A stretch of 64,000 nt of DNA from an uncultured Gammaproteobacteria bacterium. GTDB lineage: Bacteria; Pseudomonadota; Gammaproteobacteria; DRJJ01. Location: assembly GCA_947258795.1 (NCBI GenBank), contig CAMYJU010000007.1:129392-193391 (forward strand). The letters are read 5' to 3'. This document shows, piece after piece, positions 34,225 through 55,428 of this stretch (within the stretch, counting starts at the first letter, position 1; each line of letters begins with the position of its first letter). The notes under the pieces are model-generated. The model searched no databases and had not been told where the DNA came from. It saw only the letters and a list, made by a program, of their open reading frames with translations. Made by a program: the position numbers and the translations under genes.

Positions 34225-34444
34225 AAGCGTCTCCAGAAACTGTTGCTATACGGCTGTTAACCGCCTCATCGATAATATGCCACGTATGCTAACAGTACAA
34301 CCGCCTGATAATGTTGATCCAGGTCAGCATAACATCACAGCGGCTCAGGGGGCGCTAAATTATTAACTTCTACTATCAACAACATACGGGTAGAATAACG
34401 GTAAGTCAGAAGTAAAGGCAGAGAACCCAATGGGGTCCCAGGGC

Positions 34445-35406: not shown

Positions 35407-35940
35407 ATGAAGCTTTTTGGCAAGTCGTTTGTTGCAGTGCTGCTGATTGTATGTGTTGTGCCATCCGTGTCTGCGGGCAACTTCAAGGAATGGCTACTCG
35501 GTTCAGGGGCCAAAGCCCCCGAGCCTGTGCAACTGGATGTTTCGTCGGCGCAATGCATGAAATGCCACAATAGCAAGGACTCAGGTCATATCACTGTCAA
35601 ACATGCGGACTCACCAATGCAGTTCACGGCTTCAGGTCTGCAGACCAATCATCCGGTGGGTATGCATTATGGAAACTATGCGCTCAATCAACCGGCCAGT
35701 TTTCGTTCTCGCGCCACGCTCAATCCGAAAATCATGCTTGCCGGCGGCCGGGTGACCTGTATCAGCTGTCATGAGCAGAAAGAAAAGGATGTCAGTACAG
35801 CAAATGCAGCCAGGACCTATGGCAATGTACTTGCCGCCAGTGGTGGTTCGCTGTCCGGACTGGACATGTGTACTTCGAAAAAGACCTTGACGGTCGGCCC
35901 GAAAACATCGGACCTGTGCATGTCCTGTCATACGATGTAA
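35407..35940 (+). CDS. Secreted triheme c-type cytochrome
   Basis: Signal peptide. CMKCH, CISCH and CMSCH motifs. Confidence 0.75.
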   Translation: MKLFGKSFVAVLLIVCVVPSVSAGNFKEWLLGSGAKAPEPVQLDVSSAQCMKCHNSKDSGHITVKHADSPMQFTASGLQTNHPVGMHYGNYALNQPASFRSRATLNPKIMLAGGRVTCISCHEQKEKDVSTANAARTYGNVLAASGGSLSGLDMCTSKKTLTVGPKTSDLCMSCHTM

Positions 35941-36003: not shown

Positions 36004-36741
36004 TCATTTTTCCTGTGACATACAGGCCTTGAATATCCCGTACTTGTCGCCACGAGGGTCTCTTGGCATTTTTCCGGCCGGGATGCTGTAGGCGTTTTGC
36101 ACCATTTCACCGGTGACACTGTCCAGTTTTTCGATGCCGGTTTTCGGTAAGGACTCCAGTGTTTTTTTGTATGTGCCATTTGCCAGCCGATCCATTAATG
36201 CCTTGACATAGACATTGGCTGCGTAATAGCACAGCAGTTCGTGGTCCCTGTGGTTTTCCAGCAGCCATTCATAGTCCAGCCTGCCAATTTCACGGGCAAT
36301 CAGAAAATCATTCAGGCGGGCAGTAAACCCGACCAGTGAGAAACTGGTCTTCAGACGGTTTTTGTTTTTATCGACAATACGGACATCGATCTCCAGGCCA
36401 CTGATCATCTTGTTCATCAGTGTGGTCTGCTGTTTTTTATCCAGGCCCAGTATGTAGGTTTTGCGGTCGGCATAGTTGTCGATCAGTTGCAGCTTGCCGG
36501 TTTTAAGGCCCAGTTCACCGATCTGGAGATCGGTTATATCCGGCTGGATGATTTCTCTGGCCTTGTATAATGAAAGAAAGAAATCAACACCGTTGTTGTT
36601 TTCTACAATACTCAACTGGTGTTTGTTACTATTAGTGACAAATATGCCTTTTTTACCAGCGGTATTGATTTCCCATGCTGCGAGCTGGCTGGTGTTGAAC
36701 ATGAGCAGGCCAATAGCGATTATTATTCTTTGGATGATCAT
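36004..36741 (-). CDS. Secreted hypothetical protein (paralog A of the protein at 48356-49090)
   Basis: Signal peptide. SFSLVGFTARLNDFLIAREIGRLDYEWLLENHRDHELLCYYAANVYVKAL aligns with TFSIIGFTDAYTDLQISNELGRLDPDWLIEQGKDRGLACYYSAILTVQAL in the paralog. The C-termini YGIFKACMSQEK and YKLFKSCMRDQ also match. Confidence 0.6.
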   Translation of the reverse strand: MIIQRIIIAIGLLMFNTSQLAAWEINTAGKKGIFVTNSNKHQLSIVENNNGVDFFLSLYKAREIIQPDITDLQIGELGLKTGKLQLIDNYADRKTYILGLDKKQQTTLMNKMISGLEIDVRIVDKNKNRLKTSFSLVGFTARLNDFLIAREIGRLDYEWLLENHRDHELLCYYAANVYVKALMDRLANGTYKKTLESLPKTGIEKLDSVTGEMVQNAYSIPAGKMPRDPRGDKYGIFKACMSQEK

Positions 36742-37010
36742 AAAGTCATCATATCAGCTCGTCTGGTTTTATACAGTACCCGTATAAACAGGGCCGGCAG
36801 TATCTATTGAATAAGTATACTCAGGGCTGGTGTTTTTTTACTATTAAATGCAGGGAATATTGATACTGGTCAATTTTGGTATACGTTTATTGTTGTAGGG
36901 TAGAAACGCATTGTATAAAAGACCCTGAACGATGACGTATCCTGGTGCGGGCGATACGCACAAAACAGGGGGGAGAGAGGGTGTTGAGAAGATGGCGGTA
37001 TCGCAACAGC

Positions 37011-37982
37011 ATGGTATATCTGCTCCATTCAGCTGTTATGGCCTGCATGCTGGCACCTGTTGCATATGCGGACAGACCGGACCCCGGAGACGTCCAGCAG
37101 CTGATCAGAAAGGCTGAAGCGATACCGGGCATGATAGAGGAAAACCGGCTGGAGACATCGCAAATCCCCGATCCACACTGGCGTAAGCAGGCCTGTCTGG
37201 CCTGTCATACCAGTGAGCCGGCAAAAGGTGCGCCGCTACTGAAAACCGGCGGGGATGGTAGCTGTTTTTACTGTCATCGCCCGGAGGATCACACCGTGAT
37301 TCATCCTGCCCGTCTTGAGCCTGGTAAAAGAATGCGAGCGCAAATGTCGCCGGAATTCAGACAGCGGCTGATCAAGGGCAGGAAAACAGACTGCCTGACC
37401 TGTCATGACATTTTATTGCAGTGTAAAAAACGACCAGCGGCGATGCGTGTGCGTAACAGTGCCTTTCTGCGTGGCGGCTATTACAAACATCGTACTGGTG
37501 TGTGCTACCAGTGCCATAACCGGGAAAGCTATCAAAAACTGAATCCGCATGACCAGGTCAGTGATCAGGGTGTGCTCAACAAGGACAAATGCCTGATCTG
37601 CCATCGCAAGCTGCCGAGGCAGGATGGTGGTCGGGTCGGTGCAGGGGCTGCGATGCATACCGATCCGGACTGGTCGGCGATCTGCCTGAACTGCCATCGT
37701 TGGCAGCCACATCCTGGAGGCAATATGGCCATGTTTTCGGGGGGTAAGGCGCCGGACCATCTGGTGGTACCGGATGACGGGATACGCGACAGGCTTGCGA
37801 CCAGGACGCGGGAACTGAATCTGGATATGCCGCTGGAGCCTGACACCGGCAAGGTCTACTGCGCAACCTGTCATAATCCGCATGAGCGTGGCGTGATCAA
37901 GAAGGCAGGTCTGGCTAAGGGGGCGGATGAAAAAAATCGATTGCGGGCGCAACGAATCTGTATCAATTGTCATGAAAAATGA
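37011..37982 (+). CDS. Periplasmic octaheme c-type cytochrome
   Basis: Signal peptide MVYLLHSAVMACMLAPVAYA. Eight CxxCH motifs: CLACH, CFYCH, CLTCH, CYQCH, CLICH, CLNCH, CATCH, CINCH. Confidence 0.8.
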   Translation: MVYLLHSAVMACMLAPVAYADRPDPGDVQQLIRKAEAIPGMIEENRLETSQIPDPHWRKQACLACHTSEPAKGAPLLKTGGDGSCFYCHRPEDHTVIHPARLEPGKRMRAQMSPEFRQRLIKGRKTDCLTCHDILLQCKKRPAAMRVRNSAFLRGGYYKHRTGVCYQCHNRESYQKLNPHDQVSDQGVLNKDKCLICHRKLPRQDGGRVGAGAAMHTDPDWSAICLNCHRWQPHPGGNMAMFSGGKAPDHLVVPDDGIRDRLATRTRELNLDMPLEPDTGKVYCATCHNPHERGVIKKAGLAKGADEKNRLRAQRICINCHEK

Positions 37983-38029
37983 GTATATTGTTGGCAGCTC
38001 GCTGACATCATCATAACAGGAATAATAGA

Positions 38030-39151
38030 ATGACGATCAGGCAATCCGGGTTTCTTCTGTTCTGTTTCATACTGCTGGGCGTATTGTACTCGGGGGGGCT
38101 GCAGGCCTTTGTCGACGAAGAGGGTTGTCTGCTTTGTCATAAGTACCCGAAGATGGGTCGTGTAACGGAAGAGGGTACGCGGCGCTCCTACTATGTCATT
38201 CCACACGTGTTTGGCAAGACCGTACATCGCAATGTCCCTTGTCGTGACTGCCATACCAATATCAAGGAACTGCCGCACCGTGAAGTGAAGACCGGTGTCA
38301 CCTGTGATGCCGAGTGTCATTCAGTCAAGAACCCGGCGACCGGCAAGAACTTCAGTCACAAGCCGATTTACGAGGTCTACCGCAAGAGTGTGCACGGTCG
38401 TGACAAGATAGAAGAAGGTCTGGAGGCCGACAAGCCCTATTGCATTAGCTGTCACACCAATCCGTTGTACAACCCGGGTGAAAAGAGCATACCAAAAAGA
38501 ATTGCCGATCGTTGCGTGGTCTGCCATGAAGACCGAACCTTCGTCGAGGCCTGGTACAACCATACCAGCAGGCGTATCCGTGACATCAAGCGTTCGTCTG
38601 CAGAGATCGTTACACTCTGCTCATCCTGCCATGGCGACAAGAAACTGATTGAACGTCATATGAAAGCGGCTACTGAAGGCGACAAGGAGCTGGGCAGGAA
38701 GTTTGCGGTTGCATCAGAATCATACGACAACAGTTTCCACGGCAAGGTAACCCGTTATGGCTTTAGTGAAGCGGCCAATTGTCTGGATTGTCATGCTGAT
38801 TACGACAACTATTACCTGTCGGTTCACGATATAAGGCCCTCGCGTGATCCCTTGTCCCCAGTGCATGATGAAAGGCGATACAAGACCTGTCAGCGTTGTC
38901 ATACCTATGCGAACGAAAACTATGCGACCATCGATCCGCACCCGACCAAGGATCGAGAAAGTAACCCCTTTGTTTTCTGGGCAGAAGCGATTTATAACTG
39001 GGTCGCCTATGTCGTCATTGCCGGTCTGATCAGTCTGGCAATGTTCGAGACCCTGGGGCGCAGACGCGATGGCGCCGGCTGGAGACTGCGTCATGGTTCG
39101 TCCTGGTGGCGCAGAAGCCGCAGGGGCAAGAACAGGGATCGTGTGATCTGA
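38030..39151 (+). CDS. Multiheme c-type cytochrome (about 8 haems) with a C-terminal TM anchor. Module A; paralog of 45464-46561.
   Basis: CLLCH, CRDCH, CDAECH (Cx3CH), CISCH, CVVCH, CSSCH, CLDCH, CQRCH. C-terminal hydrophobic VAYVVIAGLISLAMFETL. Collinear with the 45464 protein. Confidence 0.8.
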   Translation: MTIRQSGFLLFCFILLGVLYSGGLQAFVDEEGCLLCHKYPKMGRVTEEGTRRSYYVIPHVFGKTVHRNVPCRDCHTNIKELPHREVKTGVTCDAECHSVKNPATGKNFSHKPIYEVYRKSVHGRDKIEEGLEADKPYCISCHTNPLYNPGEKSIPKRIADRCVVCHEDRTFVEAWYNHTSRRIRDIKRSSAEIVTLCSSCHGDKKLIERHMKAATEGDKELGRKFAVASESYDNSFHGKVTRYGFSEAANCLDCHADYDNYYLSVHDIRPSRDPLSPVHDERRYKTCQRCHTYANENYATIDPHPTKDRESNPFVFWAEAIYNWVAYVVIAGLISLAMFETLGRRRDGAGWRLRHGSSWWRRSRRGKNRDRVI

Positions 39152-39207
39152 GCGGTTCAGGTTATTCAAAACAACATGCAGCAGAGTAAAAACCGGGTAG
39201 GAAACAA

Positions 39208-40170
39208 ATGAAATTATCTGATGAAGCGCAAAAGATTCTGGAAACATCCATGCGTATCAACAAGACCAGCGATGCTGATCGCAAGGAGATCGAGGAACTG
39301 ATTCATCTCATGCCGAACGACAGGGTGCTGTTGTACAAGAATGTTGTATCGAACCCGATTGGCGATTTACCCAGGTACTCGGTGCATATCCGTATCCAGC
39401 ATATGCTCACCTTTGTTACCTTCCTGGCGCTGGCCTTTACCGGTTTGCCGGTTGCCTTCTATGACCATGTCTGGGCCGAGCCACTGAACACCATAGTCGG
39501 CGGGGTGGATGTGTCGCGTGTTATCCATCGTACCCTGGCTGTGGTCATGATCATGAGTATGATCTATCACATCTTTACCATTTCACTCGGACCACTGATG
39601 CAGGTGCTTAAAGGCCGGTTTGAAATAAGGCGTACGATTATTCCGTTAATGAAAGACCTGCGTGATTTCAAGAATGACATTCTGTATTTTGCCGGCCGGC
39701 ACGACCAGCGTCCTGAAATGGACAAGTTCATGTACAAGCAGAAGCTGCATTATTTTGCCGCTGCCTTCGGTAATATCGTGATGGTGGTGTCGGGTTCATC
39801 ATTCCTGTTTCCCGATATCTGGGCCAGTATCCTGCCGGCCAGTATGGCATCCAACTTTCAGGAGCTGATGCGTCTTTCTCATCCGCATGAAGCCCTGCTG
39901 GCATTGCTGGTTATCGCGTTCTGGCACTGGTACAACGTGCACCTGGCGCCAGGCCGGTTTCCGATGCAATGGACCTTCCTGACCGGCAAGATTACGCGTG
40001 AACACCAGATCGAGGAGCATTTTCTCGAATACCTGCGTAACCTGGTTGAATTGCCGGAAGAACGTTCCTATCTGCACGACATGCTGACGGCGCGTGAACT
40101 GCGCGAGGAAGGTCATGTGCATGAAATGCCCGAGGAGCCGCCGCTGGCCAGCGAGGAATCGTCATCATGA
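39208..40170 (+). CDS. Membrane b-type cytochrome subunit (Ni/Fe-hydrogenase/FdnI-type di-haem cytochrome b family). Module A.
   Basis: 4-5 TM helices with conserved His (HIRIQHMLTF, RVIHRTLAVV...YHIF, HPHEALLALLVIAFWHWYNVH). Paralog of 46575-47390. Confidence 0.6.
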   Translation: MKLSDEAQKILETSMRINKTSDADRKEIEELIHLMPNDRVLLYKNVVSNPIGDLPRYSVHIRIQHMLTFVTFLALAFTGLPVAFYDHVWAEPLNTIVGGVDVSRVIHRTLAVVMIMSMIYHIFTISLGPLMQVLKGRFEIRRTIIPLMKDLRDFKNDILYFAGRHDQRPEMDKFMYKQKLHYFAAAFGNIVMVVSGSSFLFPDIWASILPASMASNFQELMRLSHPHEALLALLVIAFWHWYNVHLAPGRFPMQWTFLTGKITREHQIEEHFLEYLRNLVELPEERSYLHDMLTARELREEGHVHEMPEEPPLASEESSS

Positions 40171-40301
40171 TGAAGCCATTGAAACCATACCAGAAGGTCA
40201 TCGCCTATGCGTCACTGGCGTTCGTTCTGGCATGGACCGCATTTGGCATATTTACCATATGGGTAATACTGACTAACGTATAACGTACAGAAGGTAGAAC
40301 A

Positions 40302-41369
40302 ATGCACGGAATTGAAAATGACAGCATGATCTTCATTATCCTGACAGTGCTGCTGTTCATGTTCCTGGGTATTGCCATCCTGGTCGTGATCGACCACAAG
40401 GCCAAGATCCCGGATCATTTTCACAGTGATCCGTTCTCGATCAAGGGCCTGCGCCGCGATCATCCGGGTATTTCATTCCTGACTACCATGATACTGTTTG
40501 CGATCATTGCCAGCCTGATCTTTGAGCTGACCATTACATTGGGGGAGCACTTTGGGATGTTTGCTGAAAAGGAACAACCCAAGTTGCTACAGGAACTCAA
40601 GGAGCAGCGCTTCAGCGAAAAGAACAGGCATTTTCATAACGAGCCTGAGGAAGATCTGGTAAACCTGGGCAAGAAACCGGTCTGTTTCTCCTGTCATGGC
40701 GATTATCCGCATTCCAAGGAGCGTATGATCAGGACCCTGCTTAACATGCACACCCAGTTTGTCGGTTGTATGACCTGCCATAATGACCCACGCAAGTTTG
40801 AAGAGGAGTCACTCAGTTTCGCCTGGCTGAATTACTCGGGGATAGAAGTAACCGGCAAGCCCTATGGTACCGGTATTGACCCGAAAACCGGCTATCTGCA
40901 GGAAACAGACGATTATTATTCCAAGATTGTTGCCTATAACAAGACCGGTAACGGAAATGTCTTGCTGGAAATCACCGAGGATGACGAGAAGGCACAGGAA
41001 TACCTGGAGATCAAGGACAAGCTGTCTGACAAGGATCGCGAGGCCGTGAAAAAGCAGTTTCACAGGACCGTCAGTCCCAAGGGGCGGTTCTGCTCGCGTT
41101 GTCACACCGCCGAGAATGATAGCTATCTGCCATTTCGTAAACTGGGATTCTCGGAAGACCGTATCTCGGATGTGACCAATCTGAATATTATCGGTATCGT
41201 GCAGAAATACAGAAAATTCTATTTGCCCAACCTGTTTCAGCAGGACATCTCTCTGCCCAAGGTGGAGTCCCTGATTGGCTCTGAAAAGTCCGACAAGGTC
41301 AAGGAGGCGGTGGAAGATCCGAAGGCATGGTGGCGGCGTACGTTTGATTCACCCAGCGGGAACGAATAA
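40302..41369 (+). CDS. N-terminally membrane-anchored triheme c-type cytochrome. Module A; paralog of 47384-48277.
   Basis: TM anchor MIFIILTVLLFMFLGIAILVVI. CFSCH, CMTCH, CSRCH. Collinear with the 47384 protein. Confidence 0.75.
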   Translation: MHGIENDSMIFIILTVLLFMFLGIAILVVIDHKAKIPDHFHSDPFSIKGLRRDHPGISFLTTMILFAIIASLIFELTITLGEHFGMFAEKEQPKLLQELKEQRFSEKNRHFHNEPEEDLVNLGKKPVCFSCHGDYPHSKERMIRTLLNMHTQFVGCMTCHNDPRKFEEESLSFAWLNYSGIEVTGKPYGTGIDPKTGYLQETDDYYSKIVAYNKTGNGNVLLEITEDDEKAQEYLEIKDKLSDKDREAVKKQFHRTVSPKGRFCSRCHTAENDSYLPFRKLGFSEDRISDVTNLNIIGIVQKYRKFYLPNLFQQDISLPKVESLIGSEKSDKVKEAVEDPKAWWRRTFDSPSGNE

Positions 41370-42301
41370 TGTGCTTGCGACTGCGCACCCTGTGTTCAGC
41401 ATCGCTGATTGTGCTGTCCTGTCTTTATGTGCCGCTAGTCGAGGCAGCGGCACAGGCCAGCCGGACAATCACGTATCTGCATGAAATAACCCGTAGCCAG
41501 GTGGGTGAGCTGGAACTGCCTACAGATGTCGCGGTGCATGAATCACGTCTTTACATAGTCGATAGCGGTAATAATCGCGTGGTCGTGCTGGGCCGTAATG
41601 GTGAAACGCAGTTCGCTTTTGGCAGTAAGGGAACGGCGAACGGTGAATTCAATGGTCCTGTCGGCATAGGTGTCGGTCATGATGGCAGGATATACGTCGC
41701 AGACACCGGAAATCATCGTATCCAGATATTTTCGGCAACGGGTAAGTTTCAGACTGCTATTGCCACTACCACCGGCGAGGTAAGGGTGCGGCCTATCGAT
41801 GTCGCGGTCGAACCAAAATCCGGACATATTTTTATTACCGGCAATAATAATCACCGGGTTATGGTGTATAACCATAGCGGACGCCTGTTGCGCGAATGGG
41901 GCGGGAATGGGGCTGCAATCGGAAAGTTTCGTTACCCGGCCACCATTACTGTGATGCCCGATGCCAATATAGGTGTTATTGATGTATTTAATACACGTGC
42001 ACAACTGTTTCAGCCTGATGGTCGTTTTGTTGTCAAAATAGGTGAATGGGGGGTCCTGCCCGGTCAGCTCTTTCGTCCCAAAGGGATTGCGATAGACCGG
42101 AAAGGTCATATCTATATATCGGACAGCTACCTGAACGTGATACAGGTATTCAATGACAGTGGCAAATTTCTGCATGTACTCACACAGAAGGATACTGCCC
42201 ACACCATGATGACACCTACAGGGATAGCGGTCGCGGCAGACAATCGCCTGTATGTAGCAGAGATGCTCAGGCACCGGGTTGCCGTTTACCAGATGGATTG
42301 A
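41369..42301 (+). CDS. Secreted NHL-repeat beta-propeller protein
   Basis: Signal peptide. Repeated LYIVDSGNNRVVVL, IYVADTGNHRIQIF and IYISDSYLNVIQVF NHL blades. TAATG overlap with the upstream gene. Confidence 0.75.
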   Translation: MCLRLRTLCSASLIVLSCLYVPLVEAAAQASRTITYLHEITRSQVGELELPTDVAVHESRLYIVDSGNNRVVVLGRNGETQFAFGSKGTANGEFNGPVGIGVGHDGRIYVADTGNHRIQIFSATGKFQTAIATTTGEVRVRPIDVAVEPKSGHIFITGNNNHRVMVYNHSGRLLREWGGNGAAIGKFRYPATITVMPDANIGVIDVFNTRAQLFQPDGRFVVKIGEWGVLPGQLFRPKGIAIDRKGHIYISDSYLNVIQVFNDSGKFLHVLTQKDTAHTMMTPTGIAVAADNRLYVAEMLRHRVAVYQMD

Positions 42302-42307
42302 TGGTCC

Positions 42308-44665
42308 ATGTCAGCACGCAGTCAGACACATAACTGGAAAAAGGAACTGTTTATTGGCTTTATCCTTTTTGCAGGCTTATGCAGCTGGCTGTTTCCGGAG
42401 GACGCCTCGGCCTTACGGCGCAAGACCTCAACCAATCGTGAGTGTGCAATTTGCCATATCATGTGGCTGGAAGAGTTCAAGCGCCAGGATGTCAAACCTC
42501 TGGTCCCCTATGATCCGCTACCCAGGGAAAAAACCGGTAAGCAGGATGTGGCCAGTACCGAACAGATGTGTTTTTCATGTCATGACGGATTTGTACTGGA
42601 CTCGCGATTCAAGTGGAAAAAAAACCGCTATAACCACCCGGTCGGGGTAAAACCCTCGGATGATGTGACCATACCGACCGCCGAAGGCAAGACTGTCTTC
42701 CCTATGAATGAAGATGGCAAGATATATTGCGGTACCTGTCATTCCGCGCATGGTATTGACTGGAAGGAAAAGGATACGACACTGTTTCTGCGCATCGATA
42801 ACAGAAACTCCAACATGTGTACGGCATGTCACCTGAACCGCGTTACGGGTCCCAAGGAGGGCAATCACCCGGTCAACAAGAAACTGAAAAAATTGCCGGC
42901 CGCGCTGGTCAAGGCGGGTTCACTGTTCAGTAACAAGAATGAGGTTATCTGCCAGTCCTGTCACCTTGCGCACGGCTCAGAACAGAAGAAAATGCTGGCC
43001 AGGCCGAACCATAATTCCGATCTGTGTTCCAGTTGCCACGTTCAGCAGGCACGTGTCAGGCAAACCAAGCATAATCTGACCATCCTGGCGCCATCGGCCA
43101 AAAACGAGAGAGGGGATGTCGCCAGCGAGTCTGGTCCCTGTAGCGCCTGCCATGTCCCGCACAAGGCCAACGCACCGAAACTGTGGGCGCGTCCGGTCTC
43201 AGTCAATCAGGACAGGGGTAGTGCCTATTGCCTGAGCTGTCACAAGGAAAAGGGTGTCGCACGCAAGAAATCGATCAACAAACACAGTCACCCGGTCGAT
43301 GTGCCACTCAGAAGGGCCGGGATTATTGCCAAAAGAGACGGCTGGATCAGCCAGGTAAAAAACAGGGCTGCACCCAAAAAGATAGTCAAACTGCCGCTGT
43401 TTGATAAAGCGGGTGGAAGGGTCAGTGTGGGAGGTAATGTTACCTGTATGACCTGTCATGATCCCCATCTATGGTCGCCTGATCATGGCCAAACGCCTGC
43501 CCGCGATTTGCGCAAGCTGGAAGGTGATGGTTCGAACAGTTTCTTGCGCATTGCCAATAACAGTGACAGCACCTTGTGCAAGAATTGTCATCGGGAGCAG
43601 GCGGCAGTGGCCTGGTCCAAGCATAACCTGCAGATCAGTGCGCCGGATCAGAAGAACAAAGACGGTATGACGGTTTCAGAAAGTGGAGTCTGCAGTGCCT
43701 GCCATGTGCCACATAACGGCAAGGGCGAGAATATGTGGGCACGCAAGATTGGTAAAAAGGGCAAGGGTGTGATGACGCTTTGTATTGGATGCCATGCCAA
43801 GGATAGCATGGCCGAAAACAGAACGACCGGCAAGCATAGTCACCCGGTGCATGTCAGCCTGAAAAAGTCCGGATTGACGACTGACCTGCCGTTGTTTACG
43901 AAGCATGCCCGGCGTGACGACAAGTATGGCAGGGTGGACTGTGCAAGCTGTCATAATCCTCATCAGTGGGACCCTGGCAATGCGATCGCCAGTTCGGGCA
44001 GGGATCCGGATACGGATGGTGACGCCAGCAACAGTTTCCTGCGTATCAGGGCCAGCGGCAAGGCCAGGCTGTGTGTCAATTGTCATAAGGACCAGGCAGG
44101 ACTGATCGGTACTGATCATGACTTGTCAGTGACTGCGCGCAACGGCCTGAATGCCAGGGAACAAACTGTCAGGCAGTCCGGGCCTTGCGGGCAGTGTCAT
44201 GCTGTACATCATGCAGAATTGTCACGACGACTGTGGGTGCAAAAGGCTGGTAGCAGCGGGAATAGAACGGAGAAATTATGTACTGGCTGTCATAGCAGAC
44301 AGGGCGTCGGACGTAAAAAGGTGCCGGCGGAACTCGATCATCCGCCTCGCGTCTTGTCTGTCAACAAGGGTCGCTTGAGAGAGGGCGACAGGAACAGGCA
44401 GCAGGTGCCGGTATTTACCGAGCAAGGCAAGTCAGATGATGTGGGCATGATTTCCTGCCTGACCTGCCATGATCCGCATCAATGGAACGCAAGCAGCCAG
44501 AAGGCAGGTACCGGCAAGAATCTCGAAGGCGACGTGCGCAATAGTTTCCTCCGCCATACCGGTACCGAGTACTTTCTGTGTGCAGATTGTCATGGCGAGG
44601 ACTCATTGTATCGCTACAAGTATTTCCACTGGTCCAAATCCAGGTCGGATAAGAACAAGAAATGA
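42308..44665 (+). CDS. Very large periplasmic c-type cytochrome with 18 haem-binding motifs
   Basis: 785 aa. Signal/anchor helix. I counted 18 CxxCH motifs, many in the Cx2CHxxH doubled style (CGTCHSAH, CQSCHLAH, CSACHVPH x2, CMTCHDPH, CASCHNPH, CLTCHDPH). Confidence 0.85.
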   Translation: MSARSQTHNWKKELFIGFILFAGLCSWLFPEDASALRRKTSTNRECAICHIMWLEEFKRQDVKPLVPYDPLPREKTGKQDVASTEQMCFSCHDGFVLDSRFKWKKNRYNHPVGVKPSDDVTIPTAEGKTVFPMNEDGKIYCGTCHSAHGIDWKEKDTTLFLRIDNRNSNMCTACHLNRVTGPKEGNHPVNKKLKKLPAALVKAGSLFSNKNEVICQSCHLAHGSEQKKMLARPNHNSDLCSSCHVQQARVRQTKHNLTILAPSAKNERGDVASESGPCSACHVPHKANAPKLWARPVSVNQDRGSAYCLSCHKEKGVARKKSINKHSHPVDVPLRRAGIIAKRDGWISQVKNRAAPKKIVKLPLFDKAGGRVSVGGNVTCMTCHDPHLWSPDHGQTPARDLRKLEGDGSNSFLRIANNSDSTLCKNCHREQAAVAWSKHNLQISAPDQKNKDGMTVSESGVCSACHVPHNGKGENMWARKIGKKGKGVMTLCIGCHAKDSMAENRTTGKHSHPVHVSLKKSGLTTDLPLFTKHARRDDKYGRVDCASCHNPHQWDPGNAIASSGRDPDTDGDASNSFLRIRASGKARLCVNCHKDQAGLIGTDHDLSVTARNGLNAREQTVRQSGPCGQCHAVHHAELSRRLWVQKAGSSGNRTEKLCTGCHSRQGVGRKKVPAELDHPPRVLSVNKGRLREGDRNRQQVPVFTEQGKSDDVGMISCLTCHDPHQWNASSQKAGTGKNLEGDVRNSFLRHTGTEYFLCADCHGEDSLYRYKYFHWSKSRSDKNKK

Positions 44666-45463
44666 TGTCGCACATCCTGAATACACGGGTAGCAGCGGGC
44701 TGGTGGTATGGAGGACGTTAATCGGGTTGCCTGGGGTGTGGTTTTTATGCTCGGAGCTGCGGTATTTGCGTGGCTGGAGTGGCGTGATGATGACTGGTCG
44801 GCCATGGGCTGGTTTATTCTGACCAGTTTGTGGTCGGCTGTATGTGGTATCGGTTATACTGTCGCGCATTGGTTTCTGGAAAGAAAAGACCGGCCTAAGA
44901 CTGATTGAATCTGTACAGATGAAGATAGTTATTCAGTGTTGAAAAGGAAGCGGGTTGTTCTATATTTAAAACAGATTTAAATGGAATTAGTGTTCAGGGA
45001 ATACAATCAGTTTGCTGCCAGATAAGAGATCACAAGCAACTCCAGAGGAGAGTTGGGATGAGCAAACAAGACAATCAACTAAAAAAATCCTGTGTGTGGT
45101 GTATCAGTGCTGCGATAGCACTGATTCCGATAGCGATAATCGTCTGGTATTTGTTTTTTCGCTAACAGACCGGTGTAAACGTAAACGAACGTTACGGGTG
45201 TTTATGGATCGATCTGGCTTGATCTGAATCAAGAATATGATCGTATTGATCCTATATAATCTTTTTATAGTCTAGTTAAGTATATAATCAGATACTGAGT
45301 AGATTGTAACAATAATAAGGGATCATGGAATTGTTGGTTGCGTTGAAACAAGCCCCTGTTAACAGTGATGCCCATCCAGCGGCATCATGGGCTCGTTTTA
45401 CGTCCTGTTACCCTTTCAGCTTCCCGTACGATTATTCATCTTGCCTGCGAGGGCTCGTGTGCC

Positions 45464-46561
45464 ATGCATGAATACAGATTCCACCAGGTGCTCCTGATAT
45501 TAATCGTGTTATTTGTTGCTACTATACCGCCCGGGGAAGTCCAGGCAGGTGAGGAGCTCAATTGCCTGATCTGTCACAAGCACAGGGGGTTGAGCCGGAT
45601 TGATGAAAACGGCAAGTTCAGACTGTTTTATATCAATAACGAATTGTTCGAGTCCGGTCCGCACCGTCGTAACAATTGCCAGGACTGTCACACAGATATT
45701 GTTCGCATCCCGCATGACCCGGCAAAAAAAGTGGATTGCACCCAGCAATGCCATGTTGTCGAGCCTTCCGGCAAGGCAAGGTTTTCACACAAGCCAATAG
45801 CCGAAACGCTTGCAATGAGTGTACATGGCAAGCTTGATGCAGAGGGCAAGCCAAAAAAATACCAGGAGGACTATCCCGGTTGCAAAGACTGTCATGATCA
45901 ACCATTGTATCGTCCGCTATCGGTTTTCAAGGGGGAGCCCAGGTCCGGTATTTCCGAACGGAGTATCAGCCGCTGCAAAAGCTGTCACCGTACCGGTAAC
46001 TTTGCCGAGGATTTCTATGAGCATGTTACCTCACGTCTGCGCAAGGGCCGTTTCCCGCTGGAAACCATAGAGGTGTGTGCCAAGTGTCACCAGAACCCGG
46101 GCTTCCTGGAGCGACATGAGCTCGATGATGCGGTAACGACCTACGAGGAGACCTTCCACGGTAAACTGATCAAACTGGGTTCTGAGCGCACACCGGACTG
46201 CCTGGACTGTCATGTGGTCGAAGGTGAAAATACGCATCTGATCGAGGCGAAAACAGTGCCCACATCAGCCACCAACAAGGCCAATGTTGGCAATACCTGC
46301 AGGGCCTCTGATTGTCACAAGAAGGCCAGTGCACAATTGGCCAGTTTCCAGACTCATGTGACCTATGAACGGGAAAAATACCCGATGCAGTTCTACATGC
46401 TGATGTTCTTCAAGGCATTGATGGCGGTTATCCTGTATTTCTTCCTGACCATGATCTTCTTCGAGCTAATGCGGCGTCTGTTCCCGGCATTTGCATTCTT
46501 TAAAGAGAGCAAGGCTGATGACACGGATACCAGGCCGGCATTAAAAGATAGGGAACAATAG
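45464..46561 (+). CDS. Multiheme c-type cytochrome (about 8 haems) with a C-terminal TM anchor. Module B.
   Basis: Start MHEYRFHQVLLILIVLFVA. CLICH, CQDCH, CTQQCH (Cx3CH), CKDCH, CKSCH, CAKCH, CLDCH, CRASDCH (Cx4CH). C-terminal TM MLMFFKALMAVILYFFLTMIFF. Confidence 0.8.
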   Translation: MHEYRFHQVLLILIVLFVATIPPGEVQAGEELNCLICHKHRGLSRIDENGKFRLFYINNELFESGPHRRNNCQDCHTDIVRIPHDPAKKVDCTQQCHVVEPSGKARFSHKPIAETLAMSVHGKLDAEGKPKKYQEDYPGCKDCHDQPLYRPLSVFKGEPRSGISERSISRCKSCHRTGNFAEDFYEHVTSRLRKGRFPLETIEVCAKCHQNPGFLERHELDDAVTTYEETFHGKLIKLGSERTPDCLDCHVVEGENTHLIEAKTVPTSATNKANVGNTCRASDCHKKASAQLASFQTHVTYEREKYPMQFYMLMFFKALMAVILYFFLTMIFFELMRRLFPAFAFFKESKADDTDTRPALKDREQ

Positions 46562-46574
46562 CGAGGGTAGGAGC

Positions 46575-47390
46575 ATGTCAAAATATGATCCGATTGTATA
46601 TAAAGACGGCAAGCGCTATTTCTACCGATTTTCGGCCCATCAACGTATTCAGCACGTGGTCCTGTTCAGCTCTGTGCTGTTGCTGGCATTGACAGGCTTT
46701 CCATTGCGTCATGCTGATGAGGCCTGGGCAAAACCGCTGTATGCCGCCCTGGGTGGACCCGAGGTTGCACCAACGATACACAGGGTTGCAGGTTCGGTAC
46801 TGCTGGTACTGTTTGTCTACCATACGATTTACTGGATAGTGAAATTTATCAAGAATGACCTGGGCAAGTTGAAAAAGGAAAACCGCCTGACCCTGGGTAC
46901 TGGTATCAAGGCCTTTTTTACCCAGGAAATGGTGCCCAACAAGAAGGACTGGTACGACATTATCCATCTATGGAAATACCTGCTGTATTTCACCAATCGC
47001 CCGCCCCGGCATGAACGCATGTCATGGCGTGAAAAATTCGATTATTTTGCTCCGTACTGGGGTGTACCGATCCTGGGGCCTGCCGGGGCGGTCCTGTGGT
47101 GGCGGGATGAGGTCTCGCATATACTGCCGGGCTGGGTATTGAACGCGGCGTATATCATGCATACGGACGAGGCCTTGCTGGCGATTCTGTTCCTGTTCTT
47201 TGTGCACTGGTATAACGTGCACTATGCGCCGGAGAAATTCCCGGCAGCCAAGGTCTGGCTAACGGGTTATTTGTCAGAAGATGAAATGATCCATGAGCAC
47301 TATGCCCACTATGTACAGGTCATGATCGAGGCCGGGTTGGAGGAAGAGATCCAGCAGCAACACTTCGGTGGGGAGCATTACGAATGGTAA
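46575..47390 (+). CDS. Membrane b-type cytochrome subunit. Module B.
   Basis: HQRIQHVVLFSSVLLLALTGFP...IHRVAGSVLLVLFVYHTIYWI is collinear with the 39208 protein. Confidence 0.6.
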   Translation: MSKYDPIVYKDGKRYFYRFSAHQRIQHVVLFSSVLLLALTGFPLRHADEAWAKPLYAALGGPEVAPTIHRVAGSVLLVLFVYHTIYWIVKFIKNDLGKLKKENRLTLGTGIKAFFTQEMVPNKKDWYDIIHLWKYLLYFTNRPPRHERMSWREKFDYFAPYWGVPILGPAGAVLWWRDEVSHILPGWVLNAAYIMHTDEALLAILFLFFVHWYNVHYAPEKFPAAKVWLTGYLSEDEMIHEHYAHYVQVMIEAGLEEEIQQQHFGGEHYEW

Positions 47391-48277
47391 AGCTGCTTAA
47401 AAAGATTATTTTCAAGCTCTATGTGCTGTGCCTGATGGCCTTTACTGTCTGGTACGGTTATTTCATGTATCCGCTGATATTCGGTTTTGAGGGCAAGGAA
47501 AAGGCGGCTGAATCATTGTTGGAAATGGGTGCGGCCGGCACAGAAGAGGAAAAGATGTTTGTCCGGCTGATTGCCGAACAGACCAAGACCAAAAAGACTG
47601 ACCTGGGTTACAGGGTGATCGACCAACCCTACATAGAGGGTCGCTTCCATCATATCGGCTTTACCATACAGCAGGACAATGCCAGTATCTGTGTACGCTG
47701 TCATGGCAATGTGCCGCATGATGAATCCAAGGAGGTGCGTAGCTTCCTGAACATGCATGCCTTTTATCTGGCTTGCGAGACCTGCCATTCCAGACCGGAT
47801 GAAGGGGTAAAGGAGTGGGCATTCCGCTGGTATGACAAGGATACCGGCACGATTACCAATAATCCGCAGGCACTGAAAGATATCGAGAAACTGTATCATA
47901 CCGAGCAGGAGATCAGTCAGTATCCAATCTATGGCAATTACGGTGCTAAAGTGGCGCCGACCCTGAATGACTTTGGTGAGACCCGATTGCTGCATGGTGT
48001 AAAGGAAATGATCTTTGTTGACCGCTTTGTTACCGAGCAGGCCCGCTTGCAGCCCGAGCAGAAATCGCAGATGAAAAAGGTCATTCATCGCAAGGTTACC
48101 AAGGATCCGGTGCCATGCAAGGACTGTCATCAGGAAGTGGGCCCGTATCTTCCGTTTGCAGAGCTGGGCTACCCACCATCACGTGTGCGTGAGTTGACCA
48201 ATGTCGCGGTCGTGAATATGATTCAGCGGTACAAGGAGTTTTATATTCCGAGTTTGCTTAAACCCGGTGGTGGTTAG
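47384..48277 (+). CDS. N-terminally membrane-anchored triheme c-type cytochrome. Module B.
   Basis: CVRCH, CETCH, CKDCH. ATGGTAA overlap with the upstream gene. Confidence 0.75.
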   Translation: MVKLLKKIIFKLYVLCLMAFTVWYGYFMYPLIFGFEGKEKAAESLLEMGAAGTEEEKMFVRLIAEQTKTKKTDLGYRVIDQPYIEGRFHHIGFTIQQDNASICVRCHGNVPHDESKEVRSFLNMHAFYLACETCHSRPDEGVKEWAFRWYDKDTGTITNNPQALKDIEKLYHTEQEISQYPIYGNYGAKVAPTLNDFGETRLLHGVKEMIFVDRFVTEQARLQPEQKSQMKKVIHRKVTKDPVPCKDCHQEVGPYLPFAELGYPPSRVRELTNVAVVNMIQRYKEFYIPSLLKPGGG

Positions 48278-48355
48278 CAAGACTTGCAGCAGCCCTGTGT
48301 AAGGAGCTGAGGGTCCGTCCATTGTGGCCGGGTGGGTTTAATACAGGTGATGACA

Positions 48356-49090
48356 ATGAGCAGGATATGTATGCTTGTGTTGTTATTGTTGCCCCGTCTG
48401 CTCTGGGCAGAATGGCTGCTGGAACAGTCCGGTGATGGCCACTGGATCAGCAGCAGGGCGGCGGATTTTCCCCATCAACTGGTGGTTGCCAGTCATCAGA
48501 ATGATGTCCAGTTCCTGCTGATTCTGGCGACCGATCAGCGTACACCGGCCTCGCAGCTGCCAGCTGAAATCCGGGTAGATATGGATCCGTGGTTAAGTAC
48601 ACAACTGACTCCGCTGCAACAACGTCCGTATGGTATGGCGTTTCGTATCGAATTGCGCCCTGAAGCCAGACAAAAAATGGTTCAGCGCATGATCGAGGGA
48701 CTGCAAATGCAACTCAGTCTGGGTAGTGAAAAGCAGCCAAAACAAACCCTGACGTTTTCTATTATCGGTTTTACCGATGCCTATACCGACCTGCAGATTT
48801 CGAACGAGCTTGGCCGGCTGGACCCGGACTGGCTGATCGAACAGGGCAAGGACAGGGGACTGGCCTGTTACTATAGTGCCATCCTGACCGTACAGGCCCT
48901 GAACGGGCGCAGAAGGGGTCTTTCTGCTCGTCAGATGGTCGAACAACTACCGCGAACCGGCCTTGCCAGCGTGGACGACAGGCGTGCTGACATCGTTTCC
49001 GGGGCTTATCGGATGCCCCCGGCAAGGCTTCCCCGACACCTGACCACCTTGAAGTATAAACTGTTTAAAAGTTGTATGCGGGATCAGTAA
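48356..49090 (+). CDS. Secreted hypothetical protein (paralog B of 36004-36741)
   Basis: Signal peptide MSRICMLVLLLLPRLLWA. See the paralog alignment under 36004-36741. Confidence 0.6.
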   Translation: MSRICMLVLLLLPRLLWAEWLLEQSGDGHWISSRAADFPHQLVVASHQNDVQFLLILATDQRTPASQLPAEIRVDMDPWLSTQLTPLQQRPYGMAFRIELRPEARQKMVQRMIEGLQMQLSLGSEKQPKQTLTFSIIGFTDAYTDLQISNELGRLDPDWLIEQGKDRGLACYYSAILTVQALNGRRRGLSARQMVEQLPRTGLASVDDRRADIVSGAYRMPPARLPRHLTTLKYKLFKSCMRDQ

Positions 49091-49176: not shown

Positions 49177-50910
49177 TTACATGCCACCGCCACCGCCACC
49201 GCCACCGCCACCGCCACCCATGCACATGCCGCCACCAGGCATACCACCACCACCTCCCCCATAGGTACAGGGGTCATGGTTTCTGCCATGGCAGGTCAGG
49301 TAGCAGCCACCGGCCTCGGTGCCGGGGCCATCACTGAAAAACTCCAGTCGGCCAGAGCCGCTCTGTGACACCACATCCGTATCAAAGTTGATCAATCGGG
49401 GCTGCTGGCTGCCATGAGGGTCATGACAGACATTACAGGGCGTACTTAGGGTGCCACCGCCCATATGCTGTCCAGCACCGGTAATATGGCGGTTGTGCAG
49501 CGGGAAAGTCTGGTTGCCAAGAATGCTGGTGCGATTGTGACACTTGTAACACAAGGCATACGCAGAGGCGCTCTCCGTGGTCGGGTCCTGGGTCAGGAAC
49601 TGGCGCTCCAGGATTTGCGGGTAGGCGGAGCCATGTGGTCCATTCGGGCCGCCAGTATTGTTGTTGTTATGGCAGTCCGTGCATTCGATGATACTGCCGG
49701 ACGGGAACGGCATCCCGGTCAGGCTGGGTGTATTGGTATCAGCCGCGGTACCGACCACCGGATGGTAGGACGGGTTGCTGGTACTGAACTCGTTGCGCAC
49801 ATTGGTTGTGTTGAACTGCCTGGTCGTCGGTGGTGCCGGTTTATTGGTGCTATCGGCATGACAGCGATAGCAAAGTTCGTATTGCAGATTGATCGTGGTG
49901 ACCTCATTGCCGGCGTTGTTCACACCTCGCACCAGTGACAGCGGCCCGGACGGGGTGCCGCTTGCGCTGGCCGCATGTGGATTATGACAGTCGACACATT
50001 CCACATGACGGTTGCTGACGATAGCCGCTTCGGTCGGATCATGTATACCGGTGGTATTCATGATTGGATGACGTGAGAACTTGTTGAACTCGTTCTGGAT
50101 GTTCTGTGACGCGACCGAGCCGTCATGGCAGGTGTAGCAGACATTTTCTTCCGTTGCGCTGCGTAACAGACGCTGTTTGCCATTGGCCGAGTGGGGTAGG
50201 TGGCAGCTCTGACAGGCGTGATTGGCAACACTGTCACCGTTCCAGTTCTGGCTGGAGGTGCTATGTGAGCTGGCCGACCAGCCTTGCTTGATATGGCAGG
50301 TCAGGCACAGGGCCCCGGCGGTATTGGACTTGACCAGGAACATACCGAACTTGTCTTCGTGGGCATTGTGACAACTGGTACATTGTAATTGACCGCTGTT
50401 ATCCAGCTTGACGTCAGGGCCCAGGCTGCCCGCCGGGACCAGCTCGGTCGGTTTGGCGCCCTGGCTGTTGGAGTAGTCGAATGACACTGGGTGATCGTCG
50501 GACAGGTCCTTGCTCAGGTTGGCCGGACCGGCCGGCATGGTCGGACCACCGCTAACATTGACATCGGTGACACGCGAATTCAGCTCACCGAGTGCGATGG
50601 TGCCGTCATGACAGCTCAGGCACAGGATCGACGCGCCGGTCGGGTTGCCCGGTGTGGTCGCGATACTGGAGCTGGTATAAGGTGTGTAGGTGCCGCCCGG
50701 ATCACGCCGGTTCCATAATGGGCCCGATGGGGACGAGTTATGCGGCGTATGGCAGAACAGGCATATCTCGGATTCGCTGGTGGCCTTGATACTACCGGGG
50801 CCGCTGACAGACAGGTTATGCTTGGTGTTGGCGATCTGACCCGTCACCGTGCCCCAGTAAAGGCCGCTCAGGACCAGTAACAGCAATGTTGTATTTTTGA
50901 TATTTCTCAT
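49177..50910 (-). CDS. Secreted c-type cytochrome with about 12 haems (doubled-CxxCH style) and a poly-Gly/Met C-terminal tail
   Basis: Signal peptide. CLFCHTPH, CLSCH, CTSCHNAH, CLTCH, CQSCHLPH, CYTCH, CVDCHNPH, CYRCH, CTDCH, CYKCH, CNVCHDPH, CYLTCH. Tail YGGGGGGMPGGGMCMGGGGGGGGGGGGM. Confidence 0.8.
   Translation of the reverse strand: MRNIKNTTLLLLVLSGLYWGTVTGQIANTKHNLSVSGPGSIKATSESEICLFCHTPHNSSPSGPLWNRRDPGGTYTPYTSSSIATTPGNPTGASILCLSCHDGTIALGELNSRVTDVNVSGGPTMPAGPANLSKDLSDDHPVSFDYSNSQGAKPTELVPAGSLGPDVKLDNSGQLQCTSCHNAHEDKFGMFLVKSNTAGALCLTCHIKQGWSASSHSTSSQNWNGDSVANHACQSCHLPHSANGKQRLLRSATEENVCYTCHDGSVASQNIQNEFNKFSRHPIMNTTGIHDPTEAAIVSNRHVECVDCHNPHAASASGTPSGPLSLVRGVNNAGNEVTTINLQYELCYRCHADSTNKPAPPTTRQFNTTNVRNEFSTSNPSYHPVVGTAADTNTPSLTGMPFPSGSIIECTDCHNNNNTGGPNGPHGSAYPQILERQFLTQDPTTESASAYALCYKCHNRTSILGNQTFPLHNRHITGAGQHMGGGTLSTPCNVCHDPHGSQQPRLINFDTDVVSQSGSGRLEFFSDGPGTEAGGCYLTCHGRNHDPCTYGGGGGGMPGGGMCMGGGGGGGGGGGGM
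49184..49219. repeat. Hexanucleotide tandem repeat (CCACCG)x5 plus CCACCC. It encodes the poly-Gly C-terminal tail of the cytochrome at 49177-50910.
   Basis: Direct reading: ccaccgccaccgccaccgccaccgccaccgccaccc. Confidence 0.9.
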
Positions 50911-51959
50911 GGCTGATCACCAATATACCGAAATACCTGAATTCGACTATTGTGCGAATCAGCGATATAGATCATATTATCATGGCTGATATAGATTCCG
51001 GTAGGTAACAGGAACTCACCGGCAGCCTCTCCGCGATGACCGACACTCAACAGGAATTCTCCTGATTTATCAAAAACCTGAAAGCTGTGAAACAAGGCGT
51101 CGACGACATAAATATGACCATTTTTATCTGTGGCGACACCCTTGGGCCGGGACATATCGCCCGTTCCATCCCCATGTCGCCCGAATTTTCTTATAAAACG
51201 TCCTTCCAGATCGAAGGTCTGTACCCGGAAGTTCAGTGCATCACTGACCAGTAACTGATCATTGCGGTCTAGCCAGATCATACTCGGGAAGTTAAATTCA
51301 CCATTCCCGATGCCGCGTCGACCGATGGTGTTGACCAGTGTCCCGTCGAGATCATATACCTTTATATGATGACGACCAGCATCGACCACATACAGGCGCC
51401 GGCTTTTCTGGTCTACGAATAAGTTTGTCGGCTGATCCGGGGTAATCTTGAGGTCCAGTTTCTCAGCGGTATCGCTTCCGGGTTTGATGACATAGATACG
51501 GGCCTGTGCAGAATCCGTGATGTAGACCTCTCCCTGGGCGCCCAGGGCCAGTCCGGTCGGAGAAGGGATGGCCTGTTCGTCCTGGGTCAGGATCACCTTA
51601 TGCCTGCCATTTTTGGTGTCAAAGCGGTGTACGGCCTTGCTGCCCGGATCGGCAACAAAAATTTTACCCTCTTCGGTAGACAACACGGCCATCGGGCGTA
51701 CCAGCTGCCAGTCGGCCGCGCCGGTAAAAAAGTCCATGATCTGTTCGAAGAAGCCCTTGCTGATACCGAGATCACGCGGTGAGGTGAATGACCTGACATA
51801 GGCTATGCGCGCTTTAGCGGGTGACTCTGGCCAGACCCTGTCGATTTTAGCTGTAGCCTGCTCTGCTTTCCTGTCTGTTGTCGTGGTACATCCGGGCAAA
51901 ACCGTTGTGAGAATCAGCAGGTATGCTGTCAAACCGGGTTTTACTTGCCATGACATCAT
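50907..51959 (-). CDS. NHL-repeat lipoprotein
   Basis: Start MMSWQVKPGLTAYLLILTTVLPGC (lipobox) 3 nt after the porin stop. NHL blades LYVVDAGRHHIKVY, LLVSDALNFRVQTF, IYVVDALFHSFQVF and IYIADSHNSRIQVF. Confidence 0.75.
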   Translation of the reverse strand: MMSWQVKPGLTAYLLILTTVLPGCTTTTDRKAEQATAKIDRVWPESPAKARIAYVRSFTSPRDLGISKGFFEQIMDFFTGAADWQLVRPMAVLSTEEGKIFVADPGSKAVHRFDTKNGRHKVILTQDEQAIPSPTGLALGAQGEVYITDSAQARIYVIKPGSDTAEKLDLKITPDQPTNLFVDQKSRRLYVVDAGRHHIKVYDLDGTLVNTIGRRGIGNGEFNFPSMIWLDRNDQLLVSDALNFRVQTFDLEGRFIRKFGRHGDGTGDMSRPKGVATDKNGHIYVVDALFHSFQVFDKSGEFLLSVGHRGEAAGEFLLPTGIYISHDNMIYIADSHNSRIQVFRYIGDQP

Positions 51960-51961
51960 TT

Positions 51962-54064: not shown

Positions 54065-54128
54065 CTGATCTGCTGGCTTGATCGCTACCCGTCCCGTAAG
54101 ACCGACGAGGGACAAGACGTGTCATTGG

Positions 54129-55271: not shown

Positions 55272-55428
55272 GCCAATATTCCACCAATGTGCCAGCCACA
55301 AATATATCATGACTCGGTTTGAATACAGAGAGTCGAACGTATAGCAGACAAACAAAAACCCCGTCACCCAGGTATCAGGTGACGGGGTGTTTTGTTACAA
55401 TATTTCCTGCCTTGCTAGTAAGACGTGC

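Follow-up and report, generated by a model that had tools for sequence, protein, structure and literature searches.

In the present study, we analysed a 64,000-nucleotide stretch of DNA from an uncultured gammaproteobacterium (assembly GCA_947258795.1, contig CAMYJU010000007.1, positions 129,392 to 193,391 of the forward strand), hereafter called the window and numbered from its first letter. The window carries two sets of cytochrome genes, module A and module B. We consider it probable, at roughly two chances in three, that they encode two specialised quinone:multihaem-cytochrome oxidoreductases of the Cbc kind, which would form the inner-membrane ends of an island for extracellular electron transfer. 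Each is best read as a three-subunit variant, made of an octahaem cytochrome c, a cytochrome b and a trihaem cytochrome c, that is undescribed among the cytochrome bc-type oxidoreductases.

An earlier note, made from the letters of the window alone, had described two paralogous and collinear four-gene modules, and all the open reading frames that it named for them were found in place. In module A, A1 (38030..39151, + strand) is an octahaem cytochrome c with a signal peptide, a C-terminal transmembrane (TM) anchor and a basic cytoplasmic tail. A2 (39208..40170, +) is a four-helix dihaem cytochrome b of the FdnI/PF01292 type and the presumed quinone-reactive subunit, and A3 (40302..41369, +) is a trihaem cytochrome c with two N-terminal TM helices. 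The fourth gene, A4 (36004..36741, -), encodes a secreted protein with a domain of unknown function (DUF) and is divergent from the neighbouring cytochrome gene A0 described below. The paralogues in module B are B1 (45464..46561, +), an octahaem cytochrome c with a C-terminal TM anchor, B2 (46575..47390, +), a four-helix dihaem cytochrome b, B3 (47384..48277, +), a trihaem cytochrome c with one N-terminal TM helix, and the secreted DUF protein B4 (48332..49090, +). The database copy of B4 begins at the ATG at 48371, and the ATG of B1 at 45464 matches the N-termini of its orthologues. By BLASTP, A1 and B1 share 31% identity over 349 aa (E 5e-54), A2 and B2 33% over 244 aa (E 2e-36), A3 and B3 29% over 194 aa (E 1e-27), and A4 and B4 27% over 225 aa (E 4e-34). 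The two modules are thus paralogous and collinear as described, with four gene pairs homologous over nearly their full length at 27-33% identity, and since the alignments cover the whole proteins, the similarity is not confined to the spacing of CxxCH motifs and far exceeds what chance would give.

The haem sites of the octahaem subunits are equally well preserved. A1 contains seven CxxCH motifs and one Cx3CH (CDAECH), and B1 contains six CxxCH motifs together with a Cx3CH (CTQQCH) and a Cx4CH (CRASDCH). In an alignment of nine sequences of the A1/B1 family all eight sites are in register, and the Cx3CH, which the earlier note had placed at an equivalent position in A1 and B1, is invariant in both types. 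The Cx4CH occupies site 8 and was found in every B-type orthologue; its presence in B1 was correctly described, but the idea that module B had added it does not hold, since the A-clade fusion proteins P0151 and P0152 also have it, as does P0290. It is more likely that the gammaproteobacterial A type shortened a Cx4CH than that B gained one. In addition to the haem motifs, the octahaem subunits share eight further invariant histidines, one per haem site, a number that fits bis-His ligation of eight electron-transfer haems, and we infer such ligation for the octahaem sites. Both A1 and B1 start with a signal peptide, and neither anchor helix (residues 321-339 in A1 and 318-336 in B1) contains a histidine. 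Residues 338-373 of A1 (39041-39151) form a conserved basic cytoplasmic tail, GRRRDGxxWRLxxGSSWWRKSRR, with a net charge of +9; it is restricted to octahaem subunits of the A type and is lacking in those of the B type. The trihaem subunits A3 and B3 have three invariant CxxCH motifs each; the TM helices of A3 lie at 12-30 and 56-74, and an N-terminal charge of +4 in B3 implies an N-in topology. A quinol dehydrogenase of the NrfH/CymA type was considered for the trihaem subunit and rejected, as there was no similarity. Searches of A1 and A2 as single sequences against solved structures gave nothing significant.

The cytochrome b subunits score 33.6 bits (A2) and 37.7 bits (B2) against PF01292, above the gathering cut-off of 30.1. 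Four long helices are indicated by hydropathy and by an AlphaFold2 model of low confidence (pLDDT 65), in which they lie at 59-79, 100-134, 176-200 and 226-246. The only credible Foldseek match of this model was to FdnI (1kqf_C; probability 1.00, E 0.011, TM-score 0.49, 18% identity). Eight histidines (H60, H65, H107, H121, H225, H240, H245 and H271) are invariant across the A- and B-type orthologues, and five of them (H65, H107, H121, H225 and H240) recur in 140-144 of the 144 representatives of the family that were compared, so that the predicted axial histidine positions of the cytochrome b are retained. The canonical FdnI set, which has a single histidine on each of TM1 and TM2 and a pair on TM4, is kept, because 141/142 to 144/144 representatives share H65, H107, H225 and H240. 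There is also an additional histidine on TM2, as H121 pairs with H107 in an HX13H spacing and TM4 has HX14H. These are the spacings of helices B and D of cytochrome b6, and a profile search aligned H107 and H121 to the b6 ligands (E 0.011). The b-haem ligands and a quinone site would accordingly be expected among these conserved positions; the geometry of the AlphaFold2 model, being of low confidence, was not used to choose between FdnI-type (TM1 and TM4) and b6-type (TM2 and TM4) ligation of the inner haem. A2 has a cytoplasmic N-terminal extension of 40 aa, which B2 lacks. The family is large: A2 has more than 1200 relatives, and an exhaustive HMMER search with the cytochrome b profile recovered 2,387 representatives at 50% clustering (E ≤ 1e-3). 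It spans several phyla, its named relatives belonging to Desulfobacterota, Armatimonadota, Firestonebacteria and Poribacteria, and orthologues of A2 are 72-92% identical.

Natural fusions indicate how the subunits belong together. Among the 150 best relatives of A2 and B2, 61 are fusions bearing 1-22 CxxCH motifs. In P0151 (878 aa), the octahaem, cytochrome b and trihaem parts follow each other in one chain, matching A1 at residues 4-330 (E 1e-54), A2 at residues 350-587 (46% identity, E 2e-74) and A3 at residues 615-875 (E 2e-23); its Cx3CH occupies site 3 and its Cx4CH site 8. P0152 is an octahaem-cytochrome b fusion, and P0154 and P0158, which are nearest to B2, are cytochrome b-trihaem fusions. 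Because natural fusions unite the octahaem, cytochrome b and trihaem proteins, we regard the predicted single complex of the three cytochromes as fusion-proven. The fusions also define its topology, namely a periplasmic octahaem domain, an anchor helix, a cytoplasmic linker, the four-helix cytochrome b, one further helix and a periplasmic trihaem domain. Under the positive-inside rule, the way in which charges are distributed in the separate window proteins is consistent with this order.

The extent of the modules had to be revised. The four genes listed for each are real, but A sits in a longer operon and B has a fifth gene. Operon A reads A0-A1-A2-A3-NHL-MHC785, and the order of A0, the NHL gene and MHC785 is kept in four related loci (L005, L006, L009 and L012; such loci are referred to here by L numbers). 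A0 (36945..37982, +) is a periplasmic octahaem cytochrome c with eight CxxCH motifs, the first gene of the operon and without a counterpart in module B; it is conserved upstream of A1, or as the end of an outer-membrane operon, in L001, L005-L007 and L018-L031. The listed A0 frame has a GTG start and 22 basic residues (36945-37010) in front of a good signal peptide, MVYLLHSAVMACMLAPVAYA, and its true start is probably an ATG near 37011. Behind A3 lies a gene for an NHL-repeat beta-propeller protein (41369..42301, +; PF01436, E 3e-31), conserved in L001, L002, L005, L006, L008, L018-L020 and L031. The last gene encodes the multihaem cytochrome (MHC) MHC785 (42308..44665, +), a periplasmic or extracellular protein with 18 CxxCH motifs and domain matches to Paired_CXXCH and MtrC/MtrF, whose orthologues are 44-76% identical. 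The fifth gene of stand-alone B-type units is orf66 (44708..44908, +), which encodes a two-TM membrane protein of 66 aa. It is found directly upstream of B1 in L002, L004, L008, L020, L022, L023 and L031, and is missing from A-only loci and from the tandem-type loci L018 and L019, where B1 lies tight behind A0. The protein carries a conserved WSAxCGIG motif. The operon boundaries rest on gene spacing and synteny, because a promoter and terminator scan gave a background level only.

Next to module B, on the opposite strand, lies an outer-membrane gene set (49177..56136, -), which by haem counts and Pfam comprises the cytochrome MHC577, the NHL protein NHL389, a putative porin of 717 aa, an NHL protein of 412 aa and the tetrahaem cytochrome MHC235. 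MHC577 has 11 CxxCH motifs and a twelfth site of the Cx3CH type (CYLTCH); the 717-aa protein has no family match and ends, in a porin-like manner, with RRDF. The set is collinear with that of Thiohalobacter (L001, 747-7702) and with those of L019, L020 and L031. Furthermore, Thiohalobacter sp. IOR34 (CP128988, region 1.261-1.282 Mb) has the whole island collinear on a single strand, in the order tetrahaem c, NHL, putative porin, NHL, a c-type cytochrome of undecahaem size, A0, A1-A3, NHL, large MHC and c177, the last being a small cytochrome treated below. Its proteins are 62% (A1), 77% (A2) and 58% (A3) identical to those of the window. As a separate observation, the C-terminus of MHC577 (49177-49260, -) is a poly-glycine tail, GGGGGGMPGGGMCMGGGGGGGGGGGGM, which is partly encoded by six perfect tandem copies of GCCACC at 49183-49218; homologues of MHC577 align no further than residue 550, which shows that the tail is not conserved.

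At least nine contigs carry both modules, namely the window, L002, L018, L019, L020, L022, L023, L031 and a partial L016, in three arrangements and beside an outer-membrane cluster of porin and undecahaem genes. In type I (window, L002), B comes after MHC785. In type II (L018, L019 and partial L016), the outer-membrane genes are followed by A0 and B1B2B3, an opposite-strand DUF gene, and then A1A2A3, NHL and MHC. In type III (L020, L022, L023, L031), the unit from orf66 and B1 to B4 is inverted between A0 and A1. That both versions were kept through several rearrangements, in many lineages of uncultured marine bacteria, argues for non-redundant roles and lends indirect support to the idea of the earlier note that the modules are two specialised entry/exit points at the inner membrane.

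On these grounds we propose that each complex would consist of an octahaem c, a dihaem b and a trihaem c subunit, with 11 c-haems and two b-haems. The cytochrome b would trade electrons with the quinone pool, and the c-haem domains would pass them to, or receive them from, periplasmic A0 and MHC785 with its NHL propeller. These in turn would connect to the adjacent outer-membrane conduit of porin, tetrahaem and undecahaem proteins, with the secreted DUF protein as an optional periplasmic accessory. The roles of A and B may differ in redox window, partner or direction of flow. Homology, subunit architecture, the association seen in the fusions, the conserved histidine and haem sites and synteny are shown by the sequences, whereas the reactivity with quinone, the link to the outer-membrane conduit, the specialisation of A and B, the direction of the electrons and the role of the DUF protein are inferred. 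Several observations weigh against this proposal. On the sides seen, the A-type modules of L006 and L007 lack outer-membrane genes within 10 kb, which means that not every module is linked to a porin conduit. No DUF gene occurs within 10 kb of the Thiohalobacter module, and loci of types II and III hold one DUF gene for two modules. Moreover, Thiohalobacter and several close relatives carry the A type only, so B is dispensable.

A more specific idea is doubtful but worth stating: the two modules could be a co-retained pair on a single haem wire that spans the envelope, in which one reduces quinone with incoming extracellular electrons and the other oxidises quinol outward, or in which each serves a distinct redox window, with the IalB-like DUF protein and the orf66 product as docking or assembly subunits specific to each type. 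If this were true, uncultured marine Gammaproteobacteria would possess a switchable two-way electrical connection, and electron-uptake conduits of the Uet type would be supplied with a dedicated link to the quinone pool. In Geobacter, several inner-membrane cytochromes serve distinct potential windows (bioRxiv 10.1101/2021.04.15.440034; PMC13591261). Two deep paralogues kept side by side are a natural experiment that echoes the potential-specific ImcH, CbcL and CbcBA of that genus. To our knowledge, Geobacter and Shewanella are the only cases in which genetics has resolved the step from the quinone pool to the outer-membrane conduit. Since Thiohalobacter sp. IOR34 is cultured and has a complete genome with an A-type island, experiments are feasible. 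The organisms that carry both paralogues are likely to be lithotrophs.

Among the alternatives, it is unlikely that the modules anchor a periplasmic substrate-converting enzyme, in the manner of FdnI, HydC or PhsC, or that they act themselves as an octahaem oxidoreductase. Some relatives are annotated as 'cytochrome b subunit of formate dehydrogenase' or 'thiosulfate reductase cytochrome b subunit', and weak similarity to octahaem tetrathionate reductase is seen locally in the trihaem subunit (TIGR04315, E 7e-7; 1sp3, E 0.023). However, A2 and B2 score 50.9 bits (E 2e-13 for A2) and 34.7 bits against TIGR01583, far under its equivalog cut-off of 115.85, and no gene for a molybdopterin, Fe-S or hydrogenase subunit lies near the module in any locus; with this score and without partner genes, identity as a formate dehydrogenase gamma subunit was rejected. 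In Pfam scans, all neighbours were multihaem cytochromes, NHL propellers or putative porins, including the 18-haem cytochrome and the porin/undecahaem set, and no catalytic enzyme subunit was among them. The one further histidine per octahaem site also fits bis-His electron transfer, although, as this ligation is predicted from sequence, an open catalytic haem is conceivable.

We also consider it very unlikely that module B has no distinct role and is only a spare, redundant or in decay. B is indeed absent in Thiohalobacter and in near relatives; L005, for example, whose A2 is 90% identical, has no module B at the junction, so that B has been gained or lost among relatives; in addition, relatives of the B-type DUF are rare, with seven database matches. 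Against this, the haem sites and histidine ligands of B are intact, its orthologues on independent contigs are conserved at 59-87% identity, and it owns the conserved extra gene orf66. Furthermore, the occurrence of B beside A in three arrangements implies selection through the rearrangements. A recent horizontal gain of module B was rejected on composition, as the GC content at third codon positions is alike in the two modules.

The separation of the two modules is old. On independent contigs, the orthologues of either type show 59-90% identity, compared with about 30% between the A and B paralogues. In a neighbour-joining tree of the cytochrome b domain (100 bootstraps), A2 and B2 share a 21-leaf subclade and split at its base. 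The A-group consists of A2, Thiohalobacter, a protein from a deltaproteobacterial metagenome-assembled genome and the Desulfobacterota-type fusions P0151 and P0152, and it excludes B2 in 100/100 bootstraps. The B side of the tree includes several cytochrome b-trihaem fusions, and the nearest relatives of B2 are such fusions. We conclude that A and B are anciently diverged and not products of a recent local duplication. The direct tandem trios of L018 and L019 would allow an ancient tandem origin inside the island. A recent tandem duplication with subsequent rearrangement, in which B would be a young copy of A made about 8 kb away and the DUF gene would have moved, as the earlier note supposed, is highly improbable, for although the modules lie 4-8 kb apart on one strand with an identical order of three genes, they show no similarity at the DNA level, the paralogue identity and the bootstrap split are those of an old divergence, the position of the DUF gene is conserved for each type, and L005 has no B at the junction.

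The DUF genes deserve separate mention. A4 and B4 have signal peptides, two invariant cysteines and no haem site, and gave no family match in a Pfam scan. An upstream, divergent DUF gene is the conserved state of the A type (L005-L007, L009, L012, L013 and L015) and is kept down to 41% identity of A4, in differing flanking contexts. A downstream DUF gene is the conserved state of stand-alone B-type units and follows B3 in L002-L004, L008, L020-L029 and L031. The supposed relocation of this gene by rearrangement after duplication is thus withdrawn, as its position is a property of each type and not a change in the window. A scan of genome contigs with the DUF profile gave one locus only, and a metagenome scan with the profile gave 24 loci. 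We compared the DUF with the fold of IalB (invasion-associated locus B, Bartonella henselae, 3dtd), to which it is only 17% identical. Foldseek of the DUF against the Protein Data Bank returned generic beta-sandwich matches only and did not recover 3dtd. The DUF also has an additional C-terminal helical domain, which holds the conserved cysteine pair and is extra relative to IalB. We know of no biochemical function for IalB itself. A conserved neighbour of the A-type DUF is c177 (35407..35940, +), a secreted trihaem cytochrome c with three CxxCH motifs and a signal peptide; its homologues adjoin A4-type genes in L005 and L009-L014, and in Thiohalobacter the homologue follows the large MHC. In L004, a gene for a UbiE-family methyltransferase, of the quinone biosynthesis type, directly follows the B4-type gene (4920-5690).

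Upstream of these genes, the window encodes a secreted protein of 241 aa without a family match (33499-34224, -) and a DUF2846 protein (34430-35017, +). In L005 the two are likewise conserved next to the island, and in L030 and L031 the gene of the 241-aa protein adjoins that of the tetrahaem cytochrome. The island may thus begin near 33.5 kb. Just upstream of it (31801-33485, +) are the genes for a thioredoxin-like protein and then for a secreted protein of 407 aa, without a family match and with repeated W-[ED]-D-x-R motifs, neither of which was seen in the flank of L005.

Among the known systems, the closest in composition is CbcBA of Geobacter (GSU0593-0594, Cbc5), which combines a heptahaem c bearing a C-terminal anchor with a four-helix cytochrome b and has been proposed to carry electrons from the quinone pool to periplasmic cytochromes in extracellular respiration (bioRxiv 10.1101/2021.04.15.440034; PMC13591261). 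As in that system, the gene of a periplasmic, C-terminally anchored multihaem c directly precedes the cytochrome b gene (A1-A2, B1-B2). CbcB and A2/B2 alike have four helices and are annotated as formate-dehydrogenase-like or thiosulfate-reductase-like, and a large multihaem cytochrome is encoded downstream in both, CbcC in Geobacter and MHC785 here. The Cbc-type composition suggested by the earlier note is therefore borne out by a four-helix cytochrome b of the PF01292 type after an anchored multihaem c, but the modules are not CbcBA orthologues, from which the published description of CbcBA sets them apart. They have eight haem sites, including the Cx3CH and, in the B type, the Cx4CH, compared with seven in CbcA. 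CbcB is described with three conserved histidines, the fourth b-haem ligand being provided by the C-terminal helix of CbcA (bioRxiv 10.1101/2021.04.15.440034), whereas A2 and B2 carry five near-universal membrane histidines and the anchors of A1 and B1 none. A TM-anchored trihaem third subunit is also a difference from CbcBA, and the hosts are Gammaproteobacteria instead of Geobacter. No sigma-54-dependent regulator of the BccR type, as found by CbcBA, which has a role in reducing Fe(III) at low potential, was present among the neighbours scanned for domains. A broad profile of the octahaem domain aligned collinearly with the heptahaem chain 28pb_A (E 4e-7), which is probably CbcA, judging from its seven CxxCH motifs, its 278 aa and the CbcA structure cited in a review; MtrF was also matched (E 1e-8), through its CxxCH content, and a narrow octahaem profile gave E 0.36 against 28pb_A. 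Homology of the octahaem subunit to CbcA is thus suggestive.

CbcL (Cbc1) offers a second likeness, in that a multihaem c domain is joined to a dihaem b of the FdnI/HydC type, as in the 61 fusion relatives. Its published description gives it nine c-haems, six TM helices and no sequence relationship with CbcB (bioRxiv 10.1101/2021.04.15.440034); by this description it differs from the window proteins, whose subunits are separate and whose cytochrome b has four helices. FdnI of E. coli (1kqf, chain C) is the best structural and NCBIfam match, with four helices and histidines on TM1, on TM2 and, twice, on TM4. It differs from A2 and B2 in that these have an extra invariant TM2 histidine, c-type cytochrome partners and no FdnG or FdnH genes beside them. 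In the literature on Thiohalobacter, Tenderia and Desulfuromonadia, and in a 2026 preprint on peat, we found no published description of an octahaem/cytochrome b/trihaem complex.

The outer-membrane set, known here from gene content, resembles a reduced Uet cluster. By counts, its tetrahaem c, two NHL proteins, large putative beta-barrel and c-type cytochrome with 11 CxxCH motifs resemble UetA, UetH/I, UetC and UetJ, as reported from Candidatus Tenderia electrophaga and the Tenderiales (bioRxiv 10.1101/2022.05.06.490989). A UetB peptidyl-prolyl isomerase, a UetF cupredoxin and c7-type trihaem proteins like UetD/E/G were not among the island genes in the Pfam scan. The published Uet cluster has neither a cytochrome b nor an octahaem module, and alternative complex III (ACIII) and bc1 were proposed as its quinone entry (bioRxiv 10.1101/2022.05.06.490989). 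The concept of a dihaem b membrane protein within a porin-multihaem cluster, as a proposed link to the quinone pool, is shared with PCC3 and PCC4 (PMC5566968). The inner-membrane proteins of those clusters have five TM helices, two WX3HX13H motifs and SGXXG on helix 4, and are ferric-reductase-domain-like (He et al. 2017, PMC5566968); A2 and B2, with four helices, HX13H without the preceding W and no conserved SGXXG, were not assigned to that family. For Uet and PCC3 the inner-membrane step has so far been guesswork, with ACIII, bc1 or hypothetical membrane proteins invoked, and the cytochrome b family described here provides a concrete candidate for it.

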